From Escherichia phage 4E10: a DNA stretch of 64,000 nt. The notes beneath the pieces are model-generated. The model was not told the DNA's origin. It saw only the letters and a list, made by a program, of their open reading frames with translations, and ran no database searches. The position numbers and the translations under genes are program-made. Of the stretch, positions 22,045 through 31,747 are shown piece by piece (within the stretch, counting starts at the first letter, position 1; the number at the start of each line of letters is the position of its first letter). The stretch lies in the sequence record OQ689735.1; one strand, 5' to 3'.

Positions 22045-22074
22045 ATTATAACACAACACGAGGGACTTGTAAAC
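22045..22074 (-). promoter_or_regulatory. T4-type early promoter (-35 GTTTAC, 18-nt spacer, -10 TATAAT) on - strand
   Basis: minus-strand read GTTTACAAGTCCCTCGTGTTGTGTTATAAT; near-identical copy at 37840-37870. Confidence 0.55.
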
Positions 22075-24131
22075 TACATCTTGAACTTTTTAGACATTCC
22101 GTTGATGTTAACCAAAGAAGCCAAGATTTGAGAAACTTCGTTTTCCTCTTCTTTTGATTCTTCTACAAGGAATTGATTAAACCCAGCCATTGGACGAACT
22201 TCGCCAGTTTCCATTAGATGATCGCCATCATATACCGATTCTTCTAATTGTTCAGAAGGAGGAACGATTGTGCCTTCGATTAGATACTTGTTATAAGCAG
22301 TTTCTTTCATCATGTACGTGCTTACTTTATTAATCTTCAACAAAATTCCACGCGGTAGAATAACTTCAGCTTCTGATGGAAATCCCGATAAATGACCTGG
22401 AACGATAACTTTGATTCGCTCAGCCCCTTTAATTACCATACCTACGCTAGTTTCAGCATCTTCATTCGCATAAGCAGAATGACTACCCATATGCATCAAA
22501 TCTTCTGCATCAACAGAACCTTCTCCTTCGCCAGAAAATACTGCACCGGAATCATCTAGAGCCATATAGTTTTTACCATGCTCACCGAAGATATTTGGTT
22601 TAAGCGATGTGGATACGAAGTTCTTGAAATAGAACATTTTGTTTTCAATGTTATGACGCAAAGTTTTAAAGGTAACTTCTTGTCCACGATAAAGCGTAGT
22701 TCCTGGAGGAAGAACTGATCCTTTGGCGAATGCAGAATCCAGAGTCTCGATGTGCTTAATAGCTCTTTCCATGTATTCTTCACGGGTAGAATCTGGTTTA
22801 CCCAAAAGGAACGAGTTCATTTCAACATATGAATCTGCACAATAATCTTCAATTACATCAGATTCAGCCTGAGTCAGTCCTTTTGGAGTTACTTCGGTGC
22901 TTGCGTATTCATATGCCTGAGCAGCAGATTCATTAATCAATTTATAAATGCCATTCATGACAAATTGAATAATAGCTACCTTTTCGTCTGGTGTGGCTTT
23001 AGAACCTTTAACTAAATCATTGATAATTTTCTTAATAACATCAAAGCTATTAGAAATATTAATGTCAGCTAGATCGCTCAAAATTTTATCGGTTTTATAA
23101 TCAAAAAATTCTTTATTCTTTAAATATTCTTGAGAACCTTGATGTGTTATATCGCTCTGCAGTCTGATAGACGGATCACGTAAACGTGCATGGGCCAATG
23201 CAATATGATTTCGGAAGCTTTCTAGTTCATAATCGTTAGATTTAAAACGAGAAGCACTTCTCATACCACCGATAGCTCCTTTGCCGAAGTTTGAACCAAT
23301 CTGAATAACGCCAGAGTTCATTGGTCCTTCTGCTTTATATACCGGAACTTTAGATTCAAACTCTTGATATTTCTTAGCGGCGAAGCTATCACCCTGTAGC
23401 GAAGCATCGACAGTAGAATATTGAGCTTGTGCTGCTAATCGACGACTAATTTTAGTTTTCTGAATAACAGCTTGATCCGTGCGCTTATCATTTTCTAAAG
23501 CAATAGAAGCAGCAACAGCAACAGCTTTAGGAACAGCATTACCTGTTTTAACGTCTACATAAACATCACCAACCTTTGATTCAACTTTTGTGAATAACTC
23601 AGTTGAAATAGGAGGTACACCTGGAATGTCTTCTAAATTGGCATTTTTACGGTAAACCATAATATATGCATACTTTTTATCATAGTCCCAGATTTCCTTT
23701 AAAAGAACATATCGACCTGCTCCTTTAGTACGTACTAAACGGTCAGCAATAACTTGCATTTGACGAGCTGCGCCATTTGTTTTACTTTTTAGTACGCGGA
23801 ATAAGCATGCGTCGATTTTATACTGCTTCATTGTTTGAAGAGCAGTATCAAAAACCGCATTAATGACGCCAATTGGATTTCCACCCAAGTTTCTAAGTTT
23901 AACCAGCGATAATTTCTCGTTGACACCTATCATTACGATATGCATCATTTTATCGCCTGGCTTAACGTTTTTATTTGTATCACCACCAGAGGTGTATGTA
24001 CAAAATCTAAATCCAGGAAGCACACTTTCTTCGCCGGCTTGAATAGCAAAAATTTGTGGTATTTTATGCTTAGGATTTAAGTTAACAACCGGCGCCGAAG
24101 CGCCGTCAAATAATTCTGTAATAAGTTCCAT
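22074..24131 (-). CDS. Alt-like ADP-ribosyltransferase paralog (685 aa)
   Basis: N-terminal 200 aa near-identical to adjacent Alt; C-terminal ART domain with R (YRGQ), STS and ExE (EAEVILPRG) motifs. Confidence 0.85.
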   Translation of the reverse strand: MELITELFDGASAPVVNLNPKHKIPQIFAIQAGEESVLPGFRFCTYTSGGDTNKNVKPGDKMMHIVMIGVNEKLSLVKLRNLGGNPIGVINAVFDTALQTMKQYKIDACLFRVLKSKTNGAARQMQVIADRLVRTKGAGRYVLLKEIWDYDKKYAYIMVYRKNANLEDIPGVPPISTELFTKVESKVGDVYVDVKTGNAVPKAVAVAASIALENDKRTDQAVIQKTKISRRLAAQAQYSTVDASLQGDSFAAKKYQEFESKVPVYKAEGPMNSGVIQIGSNFGKGAIGGMRSASRFKSNDYELESFRNHIALAHARLRDPSIRLQSDITHQGSQEYLKNKEFFDYKTDKILSDLADINISNSFDVIKKIINDLVKGSKATPDEKVAIIQFVMNGIYKLINESAAQAYEYASTEVTPKGLTQAESDVIEDYCADSYVEMNSFLLGKPDSTREEYMERAIKHIETLDSAFAKGSVLPPGTTLYRGQEVTFKTLRHNIENKMFYFKNFVSTSLKPNIFGEHGKNYMALDDSGAVFSGEGEGSVDAEDLMHMGSHSAYANEDAETSVGMVIKGAERIKVIVPGHLSGFPSEAEVILPRGILLKINKVSTYMMKETAYNKYLIEGTIVPPSEQLEESVYDGDHLMETGEVRPMAGFNQFLVEESKEEENEVSQILASLVNINGMSKKFKM

Positions 24132-24134
24132 GAT

Positions 24135-26225
24135 TTATCCTTGAACGAACTTGTAAGGCATGTTTGTAATATCTATGCAAGACGCAATAATTCCAAGAGA
24201 TGATTCGACTTTCTGTTTAACATTTGATGAAACAAATGACGCAAAATCAACTCTGTCTTCTATATCACCTGTCATTGTAACCAATTCACCAGTTTCCATT
24301 AAATGGTCTCCGTCATAGATTACCGATTCGGTGAGTTCTTCTGTGGTCATAACTTCAGCTTGAATGAGTTTTGTATTATTAGATGTTGTTCCGTCATTAT
24401 TAGAAGCATCAGTTATTTTATTAACTTTGACCATCAATCCACGCGGTAGAATAACTTCAGCTTCTGTTGCTATTCCGAGACTTCCTGGATATACAACATT
24501 AACTTTATGAGCTCCATCAATTGCCCATCCTATTTGAACTTTAACGTATTCAGGATTTTCTTTATACGCTCTTATTTCGTTTGGATTAATAGTTATTCCT
24601 TCTTCATTTTTATCAACTGTTAATTCATTACGAGCTTCTGGTTCTAAAAGACCAATACCAGCATGTGTGATTCCAAAACGTCCAAAAATGATAGGAGTTA
24701 AAGAAGTAGATACAAAATTTCTGAAGTAGAACACTTTATTTTTAACTAACGCTTCATATATAGGAGCAGTCATACTTTGAGCACGATAAACTGTAATGCC
24801 TTCTGGTATACGGTCACCATTTTCAAAAGCTGAATCTAAGTTATTTATAGCAGATTCAATTTCTTTTTCACTCATTACATCATATCGTTCTGGATTGTAG
24901 CGGCCTAAAAGAAGATTATTGATGTCAGTATATCCTGAACCGCAATATTCTCTAATGCCACGCTTTTGCGATGGAGTATATTTAGAACCATCACGGGCAA
25001 TAGTAATATCAATCATTGGACCTGCACCAATTCCGGAAAAGCTATAAATCATTCGTTTGAGGAATTTAGTTTTTGCTGCGTTCCAAGAATTTTTAGTTAT
25101 TTCTTCCCAGACTTCATCTGGCTGCCCTTTACGAGTTTTATTATGTTTATCAAGCCAATTATCTTTATATTCTTCAAAGAATTGATTAACAGCTGCTGCG
25201 TATTTCTCTAAACATTTTATTGAAGTAGTTGGTTCATTTTTAATCGCATTAAGAATTACATCTTTAATTTTTTCAGAAACTTCATTAACCTCACTTTTTG
25301 AAAAGAATTTATAGTCATAGTGAAGTTCATCTGCGGTTCCTTCGGCAATGATTTTTGCTGCCTTAGTTTTAGAAGCTAATGAATTAATTCCAAGCTTCAT
25401 TTCTTCTGCTTCGGGAATTAAAGGAGCGGTAGCAGGTTTATTGAAATTAGCTGCGGTAGATTCATACTTCTGGAATAATTCACTTTCAAATCTAGAAGAT
25501 TCCAACGACTGACTTTGCGCAATTGCTCTACGTGAAATTTTAACTTTAACGATTACCGCTTGGTCAGAACGTTTATCATTTTCTTGCGCAATAGATGCTG
25601 CAATTGCCTCATTTTTAGTTACTTGGGCTCCAGTATCTTTATTGATATAAACATCACCGACCTTCGATTCAACTTTAGTAAAGAGCTCGGTACTAATTTC
25701 CGGAACTCCTGGAATGTCTTCTAGTGATACATTTTTGCGATGTATAAGAATATATGCATACTTTTTATCATAATCCCAGAGTTCCTTGAGAAGGACGTAT
25801 CTGCCACCTGAACGACTACGGATAAGTCTATCAGCAATAACTTGAATTTGTCGAGCTTGTCCAGCAGTTTTAGACTTAAGAATACGAAGCATACAAGCAT
25901 CAATTTTATATTGACGCATTGTTTGCATTGCAACAGTAAAAACTGAATTGATATAATTAATTGGGCTTGGACCAAGACCTTTTAATTTAGCAATTGAACC
26001 TTTAGCAGTTAATGTAAAAGGAACAATGTGCATCATTTTGTCGCCCATTTTTAAATCGCGATTAGTATCACCTCCAGATGTATATGTACATAAACGAAAG
26101 CCTGGTTGTTCAATTGCATCATCAACATGAACTGAAAAAATTTGTGGTATTTTCTTCTTTGGATTTAAGTTTGTAATCGGAAGAGTAGTATCTTCGTCAA
26201 ATAATTCTGTAATAAGTTCCATCAT
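24135..26225 (-). CDS. alt: Alt ADP-ribosyltransferase (packaged, modifies host RNA polymerase)
   Basis: 696-aa ORF; R (YRAQ), STS, ExE (EAEVILPRG) ART motifs; position next to ligase gene as in T4. Confidence 0.85.
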   Translation of the reverse strand: MMELITELFDEDTTLPITNLNPKKKIPQIFSVHVDDAIEQPGFRLCTYTSGGDTNRDLKMGDKMMHIVPFTLTAKGSIAKLKGLGPSPINYINSVFTVAMQTMRQYKIDACMLRILKSKTAGQARQIQVIADRLIRSRSGGRYVLLKELWDYDKKYAYILIHRKNVSLEDIPGVPEISTELFTKVESKVGDVYINKDTGAQVTKNEAIAASIAQENDKRSDQAVIVKVKISRRAIAQSQSLESSRFESELFQKYESTAANFNKPATAPLIPEAEEMKLGINSLASKTKAAKIIAEGTADELHYDYKFFSKSEVNEVSEKIKDVILNAIKNEPTTSIKCLEKYAAAVNQFFEEYKDNWLDKHNKTRKGQPDEVWEEITKNSWNAAKTKFLKRMIYSFSGIGAGPMIDITIARDGSKYTPSQKRGIREYCGSGYTDINNLLLGRYNPERYDVMSEKEIESAINNLDSAFENGDRIPEGITVYRAQSMTAPIYEALVKNKVFYFRNFVSTSLTPIIFGRFGITHAGIGLLEPEARNELTVDKNEEGITINPNEIRAYKENPEYVKVQIGWAIDGAHKVNVVYPGSLGIATEAEVILPRGLMVKVNKITDASNNDGTTSNNTKLIQAEVMTTEELTESVIYDGDHLMETGELVTMTGDIEDRVDFASFVSSNVKQKVESSLGIIASCIDITNMPYKFVQG

Positions 26226-26463: not shown

Positions 26464-27923
26464 AAACCAGTTACCTCATGAAAATCGCCAAATACATCCT
26501 CGAATGTATTAGCTTTAGTTTTATCTTCACGTAAACGAATCGCAATCGGAAGAAATAATTTAACGTAATCAGTGCGGCCATCAGATTTTAACCAACCGTT
26601 GCATTCGCACTCTAGAATTTTTCCAATATAATAATTTTGGTTTTCCATAATGCGAGTACGGTCAAGTTCATGCGATTTTACACCAGCTTTATCTTTTAAG
26701 CCTGAACCAGCATTTACTTTAATTTTTCCACACTCTGACTCAAGAATAAATCCACCCGCTTTAGTAGGGTCTTTACGGTGAGGATAAATTCCTACAATTT
26801 TTAAATCAACATCAATTATTTCTTTAAATTTATAAAGATTTTTTGAACGAGCATTTTCCCATAATCCATCGATATTTTTGAGAATAATACCTTCAAGACC
26901 TTGGTCAATATACTTTTTATAAATTACCTTAGCTTCATCTAGGTTATTTACTACCTGGTTTTCAATTAAAATTACTTTATCATAACCTGATGTCATTTGT
27001 TCTAGTTTAGAAAAACGTACATCATATTTCAAACGAAATGCAGGAAGACCGTATATTTCTACCAACGGGACATAATCCCAGACCTGAAACTTCATGCATT
27101 GAGCTTCTTTTTCAGAAATGGTTCCCTTTAAAGATTTATTAGCGATTCCATTAGAAGTAGTACGTGATTCAGCTACTTCGGCGAATTCTTTAGCTTTACT
27201 AATTTCAGGATAAGCATCAAAAAGAAAATCTAGGCCTTCTGGTTCCTTTTCAACTTGCTCATGGTATACCAATTCGCCATCAATTAACACACCTTCTGGA
27301 TGAATCTGGCGAGCTTCTGCAGTCATTTTGATTAACTCTTCCTTGAGAAGATCTAATCCTAGATATTCATTACCAGCTCGTGATAAAAGACGAACATCAT
27401 CTAATTCATCACCTCTGACTTCAGCAAAGCACCGAGCTCCATCAGCTTTTAATTGGGCAAAGGCTGGAAATTTGATATTCTTATTAATGCCTTTTTCATC
27501 ATAAGAACTTGCCAGCATTTGAGGTTGTTCAGGAATTAAACCTGGCCAAACTTTGTTTGCAATAGATACTGATGCACCACATTCAAGGTCTCGCATCATC
27601 ACCCGACGCAAAACTTCAACATCATCTTTTTTACCGTCAGCAATATATCCAGTTAATTCCTCAATTGCCGCATTTCCGGTCAATTTCCGAGTAGCTAACG
27701 TGAATTCAATGAAGTCAAGCATATCGGTAAGAGTCAACATTCCAAAACTCTGGGTAGCAATACCAGGTTTAGGCCATTTCTTGATATAATACTGTAACCC
27801 ACGAGAATAAGTCAGACGATATACTCGTTTAAGTAATTCATTATCTTTATTCTTTTCAAGAATTGCTTGCTTCTGCTTAGTTGAACCAATAGATGCTATT
27901 TCGTTCAGAATTTTAAGAATCAT
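26460..27923 (-). CDS. 30: ATP-dependent DNA ligase gp30
   Basis: 487-aa ORF; sequence MILKILNEIASIGSTKQKQAILEKNKDNELLKRVYRLTYSRGLQYYIKK... matches T4 DNA ligase from memory; KADG adenylation motif. Confidence 0.97.
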   Translation of the reverse strand: MILKILNEIASIGSTKQKQAILEKNKDNELLKRVYRLTYSRGLQYYIKKWPKPGIATQSFGMLTLTDMLDFIEFTLATRKLTGNAAIEELTGYIADGKKDDVEVLRRVMMRDLECGASVSIANKVWPGLIPEQPQMLASSYDEKGINKNIKFPAFAQLKADGARCFAEVRGDELDDVRLLSRAGNEYLGLDLLKEELIKMTAEARQIHPEGVLIDGELVYHEQVEKEPEGLDFLFDAYPEISKAKEFAEVAESRTTSNGIANKSLKGTISEKEAQCMKFQVWDYVPLVEIYGLPAFRLKYDVRFSKLEQMTSGYDKVILIENQVVNNLDEAKVIYKKYIDQGLEGIILKNIDGLWENARSKNLYKFKEIIDVDLKIVGIYPHRKDPTKAGGFILESECGKIKVNAGSGLKDKAGVKSHELDRTRIMENQNYYIGKILECECNGWLKSDGRTDYVKLFLPIAIRLREDKTKANTFEDVFGDFHEVTGL

Positions 27924-28189
27924 TGTTCATCCTTTAGAGTTTGGTTTACAGCTCTATTATAAATCAATTCATCATTAAGCTCAGTCAAAGACCTGTGGTA
28001 CGTGGTTCTAACTTTATTTCCTTGCATCCAGTGCTTGACGTAAATGAAACCTTGCTCTACACATTTTTTAAAAATTCGTTCGTCTTTTTGAGCTCGAAAT
28101 TCTGGATTGCATCTAAAAAATTGATTTACGTGACCGTAATCACGTGTAGTATTACCTTCATTTTCATAAATAGTGTGAACGACAAACAT
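27920..28189 (-). CDS. hypothetical protein (position of T4 30.1)
   Basis: 89-aa ORF, ATG start, stop overlaps ligase start. Confidence 0.6.
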   Translation of the reverse strand: MFVVHTIYENEGNTTRDYGHVNQFFRCNPEFRAQKDERIFKKCVEQGFIYVKHWMQGNKVRTTYHRSLTELNDELIYNRAVNQTLKDEQ

Positions 28190-29025
28190 TAGAATGCTCC
28201 TTGGAAAATATTATCACCACCAGTAGGTCTATTATACAAATACTCTATGCCACCAGGTTTAATATAGTTCCATGTCTGAAACGGATGTGTCTGATATGGA
28301 TGATATAGATTATAAGGATTAAATCCAGGAGTTCTCCAGGTAGTGTTCCAAGGAAAAGAATCATTTTTAATCATCTTTTCAATTACATCTTTTATAGCTT
28401 TTTCACTATCAAAACTTTCTTTATTTTCCTTCGATGGAAAAAGCTTATTCTCTACATCATTCCATGTATAAACTCGCTGCGCAGTTTTTGGAATACTGTC
28501 ACGCTCCCCTCGAGCCATCCAATAAACAGGAACATTTAATATTTCACTCGCGTGATCGCAGTGGTGAGCGAGATCGTCAATATAACAAATTACGTTATAT
28601 TTCTCTTTTGCCTTTTTGAACAACTCTTCTTTTGAAGAATCATGACCACACATCAATACTTCTGAGAAGGCACCAGGAAAAAGAGCATTCAAATTAAATT
28701 GACGATTTAGCAGAGCGTCAATAGAATCACCCAATGCTGTAACAGCTACAAAATTATAATCTTCTTTTAATTTGTTAATTACACACAGGGCATCTTTATA
28801 CGGAGACAAGTAACGAATAAAATCTGAACGATTGTATTTTTCAATTAACTTGACACCAAGTTCTTCATCGCAATTAAAGAGCTTACCAGGAGAAATAAAT
28901 TTTTCGTCCTGAATCATTTTTAAAATATGTTCCAACGGAAGATTATATTTTTGGGCAAAATAAGGAAGACCTGATTGCCAGCTTAAACATACACCATCAA
29001 TATCAGTTAAAATAGTAGGCTTCAT
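28189..29025 (-). CDS. HAD-superfamily hydrolase-like protein with C-terminal extension (position of T4 30.2)
   Basis: 278-aa ORF; N-terminal DIDGV (HAD motif I) and downstream ICYIDD acidic motif; about 100-aa unique C-terminus. Confidence 0.65.
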   Translation of the reverse strand: MKPTILTDIDGVCLSWQSGLPYFAQKYNLPLEHILKMIQDEKFISPGKLFNCDEELGVKLIEKYNRSDFIRYLSPYKDALCVINKLKEDYNFVAVTALGDSIDALLNRQFNLNALFPGAFSEVLMCGHDSSKEELFKKAKEKYNVICYIDDLAHHCDHASEILNVPVYWMARGERDSIPKTAQRVYTWNDVENKLFPSKENKESFDSEKAIKDVIEKMIKNDSFPWNTTWRTPGFNPYNLYHPYQTHPFQTWNYIKPGGIEYLYNRPTGGDNIFQGAF

Positions 29026-29480
29026 AGAGAGTCTCTTAATAGGTTTAACACATCAATAAATTCAGCTTCAGTTAGTATTGTATCATCTTTTGTTAGACCA
29101 CTAGCCATGCTGTGCTTCAAAACTTTTCCTTTCGAGGCTTGTAATGCATCACGAAAGCCCTTGTTTTGGATCGCTGCCTCAAAATACGCATTTGTGTATA
29201 ATTCTTTCCAGGCTGGGGAGTATCTTGAAAACGGAACTCCAAGCCAGAAGAGGGTCCCACGGTCCTGAGCTCTAGCATAAGACCTTCCAGCTTGTTGGGC
29301 GGCAAGCCCGGATAACCCAAATATACGTCTTTGCTGTTCAACATTTTTCACCTTACATCCTTGGAGGAATCCTTCGAGACCTCCAAATTGAATGCCATCC
29401 ATAACGAAAGGCCAATAGGCGAAATTACTTAATGCACATGATGGCCACCTAAAATTACTTCTAATCTCTAACTCAGACAT
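29022..29480 (-). CDS. NADAR (YbiA-like) domain protein (position of T4 30.3)
   Basis: 152-aa product from ATG at 29480 (track begins at TTG 29486); segment SNFAYWPFVMDGIQFGGLEGFLQGCK resembles E. coli YbiA SNFAAWPIKVDGKTWPTSEHYFQAQK from memory. Confidence 0.65.
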   Translation of the reverse strand: MSELEIRSNFRWPSCALSNFAYWPFVMDGIQFGGLEGFLQGCKVKNVEQQRRIFGLSGLAAQQAGRSYARAQDRGTLFWLGVPFSRYSPAWKELYTNAYFEAAIQNKGFRDALQASKGKVLKHSMASGLTKDDTILTEAEFIDVLNLLRDSL

Positions 29481-29679
29481 TTTCAATGCTTATAATTTCA
29501 ACATCAGCCCAATGACCATAGTTTGGTAGACGAAATTCAACTGGCCAGTCACTGCCTTTTTCTAATATAATAGACTCAACTTGCGGTTCTTCATGTTCAT
29601 CAGTATATGGATTTTTATCTGTTACTTTATATGTGACCTTAATGTACTGAATTCCAAAAATCTTATTAATTATATTCAT
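29473..29679 (-). CDS. hypothetical protein
   Basis: 68-aa ORF with ATG start, operon-packed. Confidence 0.5.
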   Translation of the reverse strand: MNIINKIFGIQYIKVTYKVTDKNPYTDEHEEPQVESIILEKGSDWPVEFRLPNYGHWADVEIISIENV

Positions 29680-29873
29680 ACTAATTCCTTTAATCCGTAA
29701 ATAGGAGATAATTCATCACCCATACGAAGGTCTTCATTTCCATCTACCCAGGAAACAATATAAGCCTCTTTTATTTGAACACCACTCCATTTAAATGGAG
29801 GTAGAACCTTAGAAATTAATCCAGGTATACCAACTTCCTTTAATTCAACAGTTTGACCTAAAAAGAATTTCAT
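29676..29873 (-). CDS. hypothetical protein
   Basis: 65-aa ORF with ATG start overlapping neighbours by 4 nt. Confidence 0.5.
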   Translation of the reverse strand: MKFFLGQTVELKEVGIPGLISKVLPPFKWSGVQIKEAYIVSWVDGNEDLRMGDELSPIYGLKELV

Positions 29874-30160
29874 CAGAACCTCATCTGAAAGCCGTGTGAT
29901 TTAACATTACCGCCGCCAATATCAGAAATATTAATTTCACACGCAATTGAAGGGTCAATGTCAATTTCACGATTAAGTTTAGCGATAGCTAAAGTATCAC
30001 GCCCATTTACTGTACGGAATTCTAAAGGACAAACCACATCAACATAATTTTTAATCGATTCACTGGTAGGTTGCAAATGAGCAGGAAGGTCTTTAGGCGC
30101 CTTAGAGAAAACAACTTCACAGAAATTTTTGCGGGTATCAAAATAAGTAGTCATAAACAT
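29873..30160 (-). CDS. hypothetical protein
   Basis: 95-aa product from ATG at 30160 with GAGGAAAA SD (track begins further upstream at non-ATG). Confidence 0.55.
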   Translation of the reverse strand: MFMTTYFDTRKNFCEVVFSKAPKDLPAHLQPTSESIKNYVDVVCPLEFRTVNGRDTLAIAKLNREIDIDPSIACEINISDIGGGNVKSHGFQMRF

Positions 30161-30177
30161 AGTATTTTCCTCAGTAA

Positions 30178-30191
30178 GGGGCCGAAGCCCC
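30178..30191 (-). other. intercistronic hairpin GGGGC-UUCG-GCCCC
   Basis: ggggccgaagcccc between stop of upstream ORF and SD of next ORF; no U-run. Confidence 0.45.
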
Positions 30192-30200
30192 TGTTTTATT

Positions 30201-30566
30201 TTAAATATCAAATTCGTTAAGAACTACATCAAAGATTGCTTCAAGATGCTCAGGTTTAGCTCTGTTACTCAAAATATGACGAATCCAAGTTTTAACCAGA
30301 AGCTTACGATTAGCGCCATTCCAGCAAGGATGGGTCCCTAAATCGCGTTGACGAAAATCATCATCCAGAGCGATTTTAAAGTTGGAACCTTCCATTGTGA
30401 TTGAAACCGTGATGCCATTTTCAAATCGCATATAAACGTAATTAGGAGTCATATACTGTTCAATTTCGCATACTGATCCATTTTGATGTTTCCAAAGGCA
30501 AATAGTATCAATAGAACCTGCAATACCATTAGAAACATATTTACGTTCAAAGTTGATGTAGTTCAT
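30201..30566 (-). CDS. hypothetical protein
   Basis: 121-aa ORF with ATG start; early promoter upstream. Confidence 0.55.
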   Translation of the reverse strand: MNYINFERKYVSNGIAGSIDTICLWKHQNGSVCEIEQYMTPNYVYMRFENGITVSITMEGSNFKIALDDDFRQRDLGTHPCWNGANRKLLVKTWIRHILSNRAKPEHLEAIFDVVLNEFDI

Positions 30567-30603
30567 TTTTATTCTCCGAGATGTTTAATTGCGGTACAGG
30601 TAT

Positions 30604-30632
30604 ATAATATCATATCCTGTACCAAAGTAAAC
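30604..30632 (-). promoter_or_regulatory. T4-type early promoter (GTTTAC-N17-TATTAT) on - strand
   Basis: minus-strand read GTTTACTTTGGTACAGGATATGATATTAT; overlaps inverted repeat ggtacagg/cctgtacc. Confidence 0.5.
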
Positions 30633-30634
30633 AA

Positions 30635-30967
30635 TTATTTTACTACTTTCCAGTGCTTCATGTCAAGTTTACCAACTTTTTTCATCTTCTCAATCAAACG
30701 TTCGGCACGTTGGCGAGCTGTAACATAATACCATTCGCCTAATTCATTTTGTTCAATTTTTCCAACGATTACTGTATTCAATTCATAAATCCAACCAGTA
30801 AAGAAATTATGAACTTGAATTGTAAAGGTGAAATCTGTTCCCATACCTTCTGTTGTTTCTACTTCAATAATATCACCTTCAACTGCCATTAAGAACCACA
30901 TAGTTTCATCATATTTACCATTGAAGCATTTAGTTTTAACTGCAGCGTTCAGATTAATCGTTTTCAT
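30635..30967 (-). CDS. hypothetical protein
   Basis: 110-aa ORF with ATG start. Confidence 0.55.
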   Translation of the reverse strand: MKTINLNAAVKTKCFNGKYDETMWFLMAVEGDIIEVETTEGMGTDFTFTIQVHNFFTGWIYELNTVIVGKIEQNELGEWYYVTARQRAERLIEKMKKVGKLDMKHWKVVK

Positions 30968-30994
30968 TTTATTCTCCTTTGTTTGTGTAAGATA

Positions 30995-31024
30995 ATACTA
31001 TCACAAAGGAACCATACTGTAAAC
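30995..31024 (-). promoter_or_regulatory. T4-type early promoter (GTTTAC-N18-TAGTAT) on - strand
   Basis: minus-strand read GTTTACAGTATGGTTCCTTTGTGATAGTAT. Confidence 0.45.
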
Positions 31025-31053
31025 AACTTTGTGCAATCTTTGGAAAATAAAAA

Positions 31054-31073
31054 AGGACTCCCGAAGGAGTCCT
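31054..31073 (-). terminator. hairpin AGGACUCC-loop-GGAGUCCU followed by U-run on - strand
   Basis: aggactcccgaaggagtcct seen directly, 5 nt after stop of the 58-aa ORF; followed by UUUUUAUUUU. Confidence 0.6.
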
Positions 31074-31077
31074 TAAC

Positions 31078-31254
31078 TTATGCTTTCTGCTTACCAAAAC
31101 GAGAAGCATCATCTCTAAGAACCGCACGTGCTCGGCGCATGATCTTCTCAACAGTTTGATTGATACGAGAGTTCGACCCACGCTTGTAGCCAGCGCGTTT
31201 AGAATCACCAACTTTCTTTTCAACTGCTTTCTTTGCTTTAGCTTGTTTTGCCAT
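31078..31254 (-). CDS. small basic protein (58 aa; position of T4 30.9)
   Basis: ATG at 31254 with upstream GAG; lysine/arginine-rich MAKQAKAKKAVEKKVGDSKRAGYKRG... Confidence 0.5.
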   Translation of the reverse strand: MAKQAKAKKAVEKKVGDSKRAGYKRGSNSRINQTVEKIMRRARAVLRDDASRFGKQKA

Positions 31255-31498
31255 TATAAATTCTCTTTTAAATGAAAATGCAGGACTTATTGGCATTGCC
31301 TGCGCAAGCCCTCAAGGGGAACGTAGGTTTTTGGATATTTAACGACAGGATAACCATAAACCCGTCATCATTCACATTCAAGAGGTACACCATAAAACTG
31401 CCGGGGTCTTAAAACTATAATGATTCGCAAATCATTAATCAGACAGTTCGATGGCTCCTCGATTTTAGCTCACACTAAGGCAGTGAATCTCCAATAAA

Positions 31499-31747
31499 TT
31501 ACTTCAGTGTTACCACAAAGTGACGAACTGCTTTTCGTGCAGCAGAAGCCAGAGGCTTAGCATACTTAAGTTCATCTTTTTCCTGAAGCTCAGCAGCTAA
31601 TGCAGTTTGAGCAGGATTCAGATGTTTGAAATAACGCAGGATTTCAAGAGCTTCGGCTTCAACATCAATAGATGCGCCATAGTTTTCGTGACCATTATTC
31701 CATGCGTTTCGTTGCAGTTCAAGAGCGTGTTGTAATTGTTTAATCAT
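31499..31747 (-). CDS. rIII: RIII lysis inhibition accessory protein
   Basis: 82-aa ORF; sequence MIKQLQHALELQRNAWNNGHENYGASIDVEAEALEILRYFKHLNPAQTALAAELQEKDELK... matches T4 rIII from memory. Confidence 0.85.
   Translation of the reverse strand: MIKQLQHALELQRNAWNNGHENYGASIDVEAEALEILRYFKHLNPAQTALAAELQEKDELKYAKPLASAARKAVRHFVVTLK

Follow-up and report, generated by a model that had tools for sequence, protein, structure and literature searches.

Gene 30.3 of Escherichia phage 4E10 as a predicted adfN, encoding a stand-alone NADAR glycohydrolase directed against DarT1 modification

Gene 30.3 of Escherichia phage 4E10 is in all probability adfN, i.e. the gene for a minimal stand-alone NADAR glycohydrolase which would clear the guanine ADP-ribosylation set by DarT1 from phage DNA. 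We put the probability of this reading at about 93%. The analysis covered a stretch of 64,000 nucleotides of sequence record OQ689735.1, called the window below, in which the gene occupies positions 29022..29480 on the minus strand. The analysis established the gene itself, its orthology and its synteny with the T4 gene, the NADAR fold of its product, the residues glutamate 36, lysine 43 and histidine 123 and an intact C-terminal helix. The T4 protein, which is 99% identical, has guanine-ADP-ribose glycohydrolase activity in vitro, and the same activity is predicted for the 4E10 allele. By analogy with this orthologue the 4E10 allele, which carries the substitutions Q22Y and I125M at non-catalytic positions, very likely behaves like T4 AdfN. 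Mechanism, specificity and phenotype of AdfN are known from work published between 2023 and 2026, and no new biology is reported here. The label adfN (anti-DarT factor NADAR; DNA ADP-ribosylglycohydrolase) should replace 'hypothetical protein', which is the label in nearly all of the about 1,500 phage records carrying gp30.3. The intact gene predicts resistance of 4E10 to DarTG1, which is useful in choosing phages for hosts carrying this system.

Gene 30.3 of 4E10 and its T4 counterpart

The reading frame of adfN comprises 459 nucleotides, starting on the minus strand with the ATG at 29480-29478, ending with the TGA at 29024-29022 and encoding 152 amino acids. A mechanical list of open reading frames starts it two codons farther upstream, with a TTG at 29486. 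The start was set at the ATG because this agrees with the annotation of T4 and with the numbering of residues in the literature. Gene 30.4 extends by eight nucleotides into 30.3, across its ATG (29473..29480, minus strand; ...ATTGAAAATGTCTGA and the list of reading frames), an arrangement which suggests translational coupling of the two genes. At the other end the stop codon of 30.3 and the start codon of 30.2 share bases in an ATGA overlap (29022..29025, minus strand; ...TCTCTATGAAGCCT and the same list). Tight packing of genes with overlaps is typical of T4. The order of genes in the window is ligase gene 30, 30.1 (DUF3045), 30.2, 30.3, 30.4, 30.5, 30.6, 30.7, 30.8, 30.9, rIII and 31, in agreement with the T4 reference record. 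Scans of positions 27800-31600 for sigma-70 promoters (15 found, 12.8 expected) and for terminators (two found, 1.8 expected) yielded background numbers only, and for this reason no claim on transcription is made.

The protein is identical to T4 gp30.3 (NP_049816) in 150 of 152 residues, the two changes being Q22Y and I125M. Both appear to be tolerated in the family, tyrosine 22 being found in one homologue (P0022) and methionine 125 being the family consensus. At the DNA level the two genes differ by 17 nucleotides located in 13 synonymous and two non-synonymous codons, a pattern indicative of purifying selection on 30.3. A search with the Pfam model PF08010 (Phage_30_3, 'Bacteriophage protein GP30.3') gave a match with an E value of 1.4e-69 and 232.7 bits, at a cut-off of 36 bits, covering profile positions 1-138 of 138. 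PHROG 652 was matched with an E value of 3e-51, and a search of NCBIfam gave no match. Because of the PF08010 match, the identity to T4 and the mostly synonymous divergence the reading frame is clearly a real gene and not a chance one. The original prediction had placed a NADAR-domain protein at these positions without giving a strand, and it is borne out by a real gene on the minus strand, the product of which has the fold and the catalytic residues of a NADAR as described below. Near-identity together with the position between ligase gene 30 and gene 31 identifies it, on sequence grounds, as the orthologue of T4 gene 30.3 (adfN).

The T4 protein resembles that of 4E10 in its length, start and stop overlaps, neighbours, glutamate 36, lysine 43, histidine 123 and C-terminal helix, and differs from it in glutamine 22, isoleucine 125 and in being carried by another Tequatrovirus. 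Over 3 kb around adfN the window shares 98-99% identity with genomes of Tequatrovirus, the best match being Shigella phage SH7 (99.0%), followed by EC121, RB51, RB68 and wV7. As judged from these sequences the phage belongs to the genus Tequatrovirus, near Shigella phage SH7, RB51 and T6. The gp30.3 family is present in 1,510 of 50,697 phage records. For the comparisons given below 104 homologues were collected, of which 52-53 full-length ones were aligned.

Within 30.3 an internal alternative-frame reading frame annotated in T4 as 30.3' is open in 4E10 as well (29117-29344, minus strand, 75 amino acids). Nine of its 75 residues differ from T4, and the changes are almost all synonymous in the overlapping 30.3 frame. 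The 30.3' frame shows no constraint at the protein level and possibly does not represent a real gene.

NADAR fold, catalytic residues and the C-terminal helix

PF08719, the NADAR model of Pfam, was not matched by the 4E10 protein even at E values up to 10, and a search of the chains in the PDB with the single sequence yielded a chance match only (3rjz, E=0.61). The assignment to the NADAR superfamily is therefore based on profile, transitive and structural evidence. PF08719 is matched by 20 of 52 members of the gp30.3 family, with a best E value of 1.5e-7. A profile of the family finds Escherichia coli YbiA (PDB 2b3w) with an E value of 0.0044 among 177,635 PDB sequences, and alignment of the family with YbiA by hhalign gave a probability of 93.4% and an E value of 2.6e-7. 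An AlphaFold2 model of 4E10 gp30.3, calculated with a family alignment from which the T4 sequence had been left out, shows the NADAR fold with a mean pLDDT of 93.5 and a pTM of 0.88. This predicted structure is decisive, and we regard membership in the NADAR superfamily as solid. The similarity to YbiA, which the original prediction had named, is real and weak at the same time: a single BLASTP comparison with YbiA of E. coli K-12 (NC_000913) gave 33% identity over 57 amino acids with an E value of 1e-5, centred on the motif SNFA-WP...DG...E..(F/L)Q..K, and it is not accompanied by a match to PF08719.

Alignment with characterised NADARs, the check proposed along with the original prediction, confirmed catalytic residues in the 4E10 protein. 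The catalytic glutamate 36 (codon GAA, 29373..29375, minus strand), which contacts the distal ribose and was assigned from the alignment and the T4 mutant, is invariant in 53 family members and pairs with glutamate 48 of YbiA in the hhalign profile alignment. Mutation of the corresponding residue of T4 AdfN to alanine (E36A) yielded a protein inactive in a dot-blot (PMC11825919). Lysine 43 (AAG, 29352..29354, minus strand), the phosphate-coordinating residue by alignment and T4 mutant, is kept in 90% or more of the family members and pairs with lysine 55 of YbiA. The K43A mutation weakens rescue by T4 AdfN (PMC11825919), and the equivalent lysine 95 of the E. coli C7 NADAR is essential (PMC11543638). 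The spacing of glutamate 36 and lysine 43, with six residues in between, is the same as that of glutamate 43 and lysine 50 in PnNADAR and of glutamate 88 and lysine 95 in the C7 NADAR, for which the roles of the two residues in ribose and phosphate coordination are known from structure and mutagenesis (PMC11543638).

The third residue, histidine 123 (CAC, 29112..29114, minus strand), is located in the last strand and marks the phage (gp30.3) subfamily of NADARs, as judged from the alignment and the model. It is invariant in 53 sequences and sits in the strand formed by residues 120-123 of the AlphaFold2 model. Three published studies describe this position as glutamate in YbiA-type, aspartate in DarG1-type and histidine in phage gp30.3-type NADARs (PMC11125620, PMC11543638, PMC12945103). 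In a MAFFT alignment histidine 123 is placed opposite the histidine of the 'EH' dipeptide of YbiA and not opposite the glutamate, and the structural register of the third catalytic position is thus tentative.

The C-terminal alpha-helix of the AlphaFold2 model, residues 138-151 (29028..29069, minus strand), is intact in 4E10 and lost in RB69. RB69 is the one T-even phage sensitive to DarTG1, in which insertion of a single T cuts gp30.3 by 15 residues; a truncation like that of RB69 reduces the activity of AdfN, the C-terminal helix being needed for full activity (PMC11825919). In a DNA alignment RB69 reads ...CTA ACT TGA, with the stop after ILT, where the window and T4 read ...CTA AC(T/C) GAA GCT... 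and go on to the regular stop. As its frame reads past the site of the RB69 stop, 4E10 gp30.3 keeps the helix. At position 29070 of the window (nucleotide 411 of the gene) a T is found where T4 has a C, a synonymous change from ACC to ACT. The inactivating extra T of RB69 falls exactly at this position, and because the two sites coincide the RB69 allele can be described as the allele of the window type plus one T.

Truncated gp30.3 or fusions of it to fragments of neighbouring genes (86-126 amino acids, some with extra Pfam domains) occur in many T4-like genomes. Examples are the homologues P0007, P0013, P0015, P0017 and P0047 as well as the RB69 locus (L009:968-1381). These copies suggest either a recurrent natural loss of adfN or errors of assembly, and they would predict sensitivity of the respective phages to DarTG1.

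Function of AdfN and its relation to other NADARs

The reaction in question was described by Schuller et al. in 2023, who found that NADARs including DarG1 reverse the ADP-ribosylation of guanine N2 by DarT1 and who noted phage NADARs of the histidine type (PMC11543638). In a study from 2024 purified T4 gp30.3 hydrolysed guanosine-ADPr and not thymidine-ADPr, and without infection it gave E. coli no protection against DarT1 (PMC11125620). The resistance of T2 and T4 to DarTG1 was mapped to gene 30.3 by Johannesman et al. (Nat Commun 2025), who renamed the gene adfN for anti-DarT factor NADAR (PMC11825919). [quoted passage not shown] The T4 NADAR also acts on G-ADPr RNA (PMC11833690), and in the available text of a further report it is listed among the NADARs described as 'not able to' in a test with cytidine-ADPr (PMC12945103). 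T4 AdfN rescues phages other than T-even ones weakly, its full activity needs T-even infection, and a partner factor from T-even phages has been postulated (PMC11825919). The lack of rescue outside infection and the weak rescue of other phages make the picture of an enzyme which is enough on its own incomplete.

Transferred to 4E10 these data lead to the following scheme. In a host carrying DarTG1 the toxin DarT1 would ADP-ribosylate N2 of guanines in the phage DNA and block replication. AdfN would bind the ADP-ribosyl-guanine with glutamate 36 and histidine 123 around the distal ribose and lysine 43 on the diphosphate, and would hydrolyse the N-glycosidic bond between guanine and ribose. ADP-ribose would be released, leaving unmodified DNA on which replication could proceed. 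AdfN would behave like an orphaned DarG1, which is a type IV antitoxin, and would not bind the toxin. That a NADAR carried by a phage might shield its DNA from DarT had been suggested from the sequence beforehand, and exactly this has been shown for the 99% identical T4 protein (PMC11125620, PMC11825919). The reference to the DarT toxins of DarTG systems in general was too broad, as it holds for DarT1 acting on guanine and fails for DarT2 acting on thymidine.

Published trees place the gp30.3 proteins nearest to the DarG1-type NADARs and not to YbiA (PMC11825919). DarG1 proteins such as the NADARs of E. coli C7 and of Geobacter lovleyi (PDB 8bat) have an N-terminal extension which 4E10 gp30.3 does not have, and they carry a catalytic aspartate (D171 in C7) where 4E10 gp30.3 has a histidine. 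They are encoded beside DarT1, in contrast to 4E10 gp30.3, the neighbours of which are gp30.2 and gp30.4 in an orphan position as in T4. Of the features of the DarG1 class a DarT1 neighbour, the N-terminal extension and the aspartate of the last strand are all missing in 4E10, and the 152 amino acids represent the core domain. T4 AdfN, too, differs from DarG1 in being unable to replace it in uninfected cells. Other orphan phage NADARs countering DarTG1 like the T4-type protein are AdfN-Bas32 from a T5-like phage and AdfN-Bas60 from Vequintavirinae; they belong to other NADAR clades, were acquired independently, and can neutralise DarT1 in the absence of T-even infection, a context on which T4-type AdfN depends (PMC11825919).

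Distant NADARs of the gp30.3 type with 38-39% identity were found in a contig of 308 kb (L003:6001-6468) and one of 82 kb (L006:5001-5468). They lie among small unannotated reading frames in these large phage-like contigs, the one in L003 near NUDIX and Thg1-like genes. Neither homologue has a DarT or an ADP-ribosyltransferase neighbour, and the absence of DarT-like neighbours fits an orphan status of the whole gp30.3 family.

Alternative readings and neighbouring genes

An inactive or decaying copy which, as in RB69, gives no protection might be considered since truncated or fused gp30.3 is common in public T4-like genomes and since the frameshift of RB69 sits at the very position of the C-to-T change in the window. 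The 4E10 protein, however, has its full length of 152 amino acids with catalytic residues and C-terminal helix in place, and its gene diverges from that of T4 in an overwhelmingly synonymous manner. With an intact frame and this type of divergence a decayed copy is excluded, and we assign it practically no probability. Only slightly better is the standing of a housekeeping N-glycosidase of the YbiA type, which would act on reactive intermediates of the riboflavin pathway and have no role in evasion of defence. YbiA (PDB 2b3w) differs from 4E10 gp30.3 by a glutamate in the last strand and by extra beta-hairpins, and also by its riboflavin-related housekeeping role and its location, together with dinG and ybiB, in an operon under LexA control. 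The gp30.3 family has a histidine at the position of the glutamate which defines the YbiA family. This residue, the position of gp30.3 nearest to DarG1-type NADARs in the published trees and the anti-DarTG1 function documented by genetics and biochemistry of T4 AdfN (PMC11825919) make such a role highly improbable.

A further suggestion in the original prediction was that the enzyme edits marks placed by transferases of the phage itself. In its strong form this means that 4E10 gp30.3 mainly erases ADP-ribose set by Alt, by a second Alt paralogue, by ModA and by ModB. Two intact Alt-type ADP-ribosyltransferase genes (PF03496) are indeed arranged in tandem at 22074-24131 and 24135-26225, on the minus strand like adfN and some 3-7 kb from it, and NADARs act on G-ADPr RNA in vitro (PMC11833690). 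The reported substrates of NADARs are on the other hand base-linked ADP-ribosyl groups of nucleic acids, with guanine accepted by all enzymes tested and, according to the available text of one of the two reports, cytidine by some (PMC11125620, PMC12945103). The phenotype of T4 and T2 upon loss of function is specific to DarTG1 hosts (PMC11825919). The targets of Alt, ModA and ModB are arginine side chains of proteins, and the reports consulted here do not tie these enzymes to base-linked ADP-ribosylation of nucleic acids. The distant homologues in the two phage-like contigs lack a transferase neighbour, and nearness to alt reflects synteny shared with T4 and is no evidence of coupling. Editing of own marks has no support, and as the main task of the enzyme it is very unlikely. 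Clearance of DarT1 marks by AdfN is the preferred reading.

A variant of the preferred reading concerns the postulated partner of AdfN. It holds that the partner is encoded in the coupled string of genes, for instance as the HAD-like gp30.2, and that in phages with two intact Alt-type transferases AdfN may in addition remove guanine ADP-ribosylation which arises as a side effect on phage DNA or RNA. We consider this combination very unlikely. Gene 30.2 is located at 28189-29025 on the minus strand and encodes 278 amino acids with a DxDGV motif of the HAD type at the start (MKPTILTDIDGV). The protein shows weak PHROG similarity to polynucleotide kinase/phosphatase and is called 'phosphatase' in a few phage records. 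It occurs in 1,452 of the 50,697 phage records, with the same spread over hosts as gp30.3. As a candidate for the T-even factor boosting AdfN gp30.2 could qualify, and its co-occurrence with gp30.3 is compatible with this and equally well explained by shared ancestry. A conserved partnership of gp30.2 and gp30.3 was not retained, co-occurrence in about 1,450-1,500 T4-like genomes being inseparable from common descent. The gene following the homologue in L003 is unrelated to gp30.2 (BLASTP E=1.9), and in the second lineage no gene of the size of gp30.2 was called beside the homologue, judged by size alone. As the distant homologues are found without a gp30.2 neighbour, the pairing of the two genes looks like T4 synteny and not like a functional module.

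The two Alt-type genes of the window differ in their relation to T4 Alt. The one proximal to the ligase gene encodes 696 amino acids with 71% identity to T4 Alt, the other 685 amino acids with 41% identity. The N-terminus of the second paralogue is 95-96% identical to the small T4 reading frames alt.-1 and alt.-2, which because of this identity can be understood as remnants of the second Alt paralogue that is complete in 4E10.
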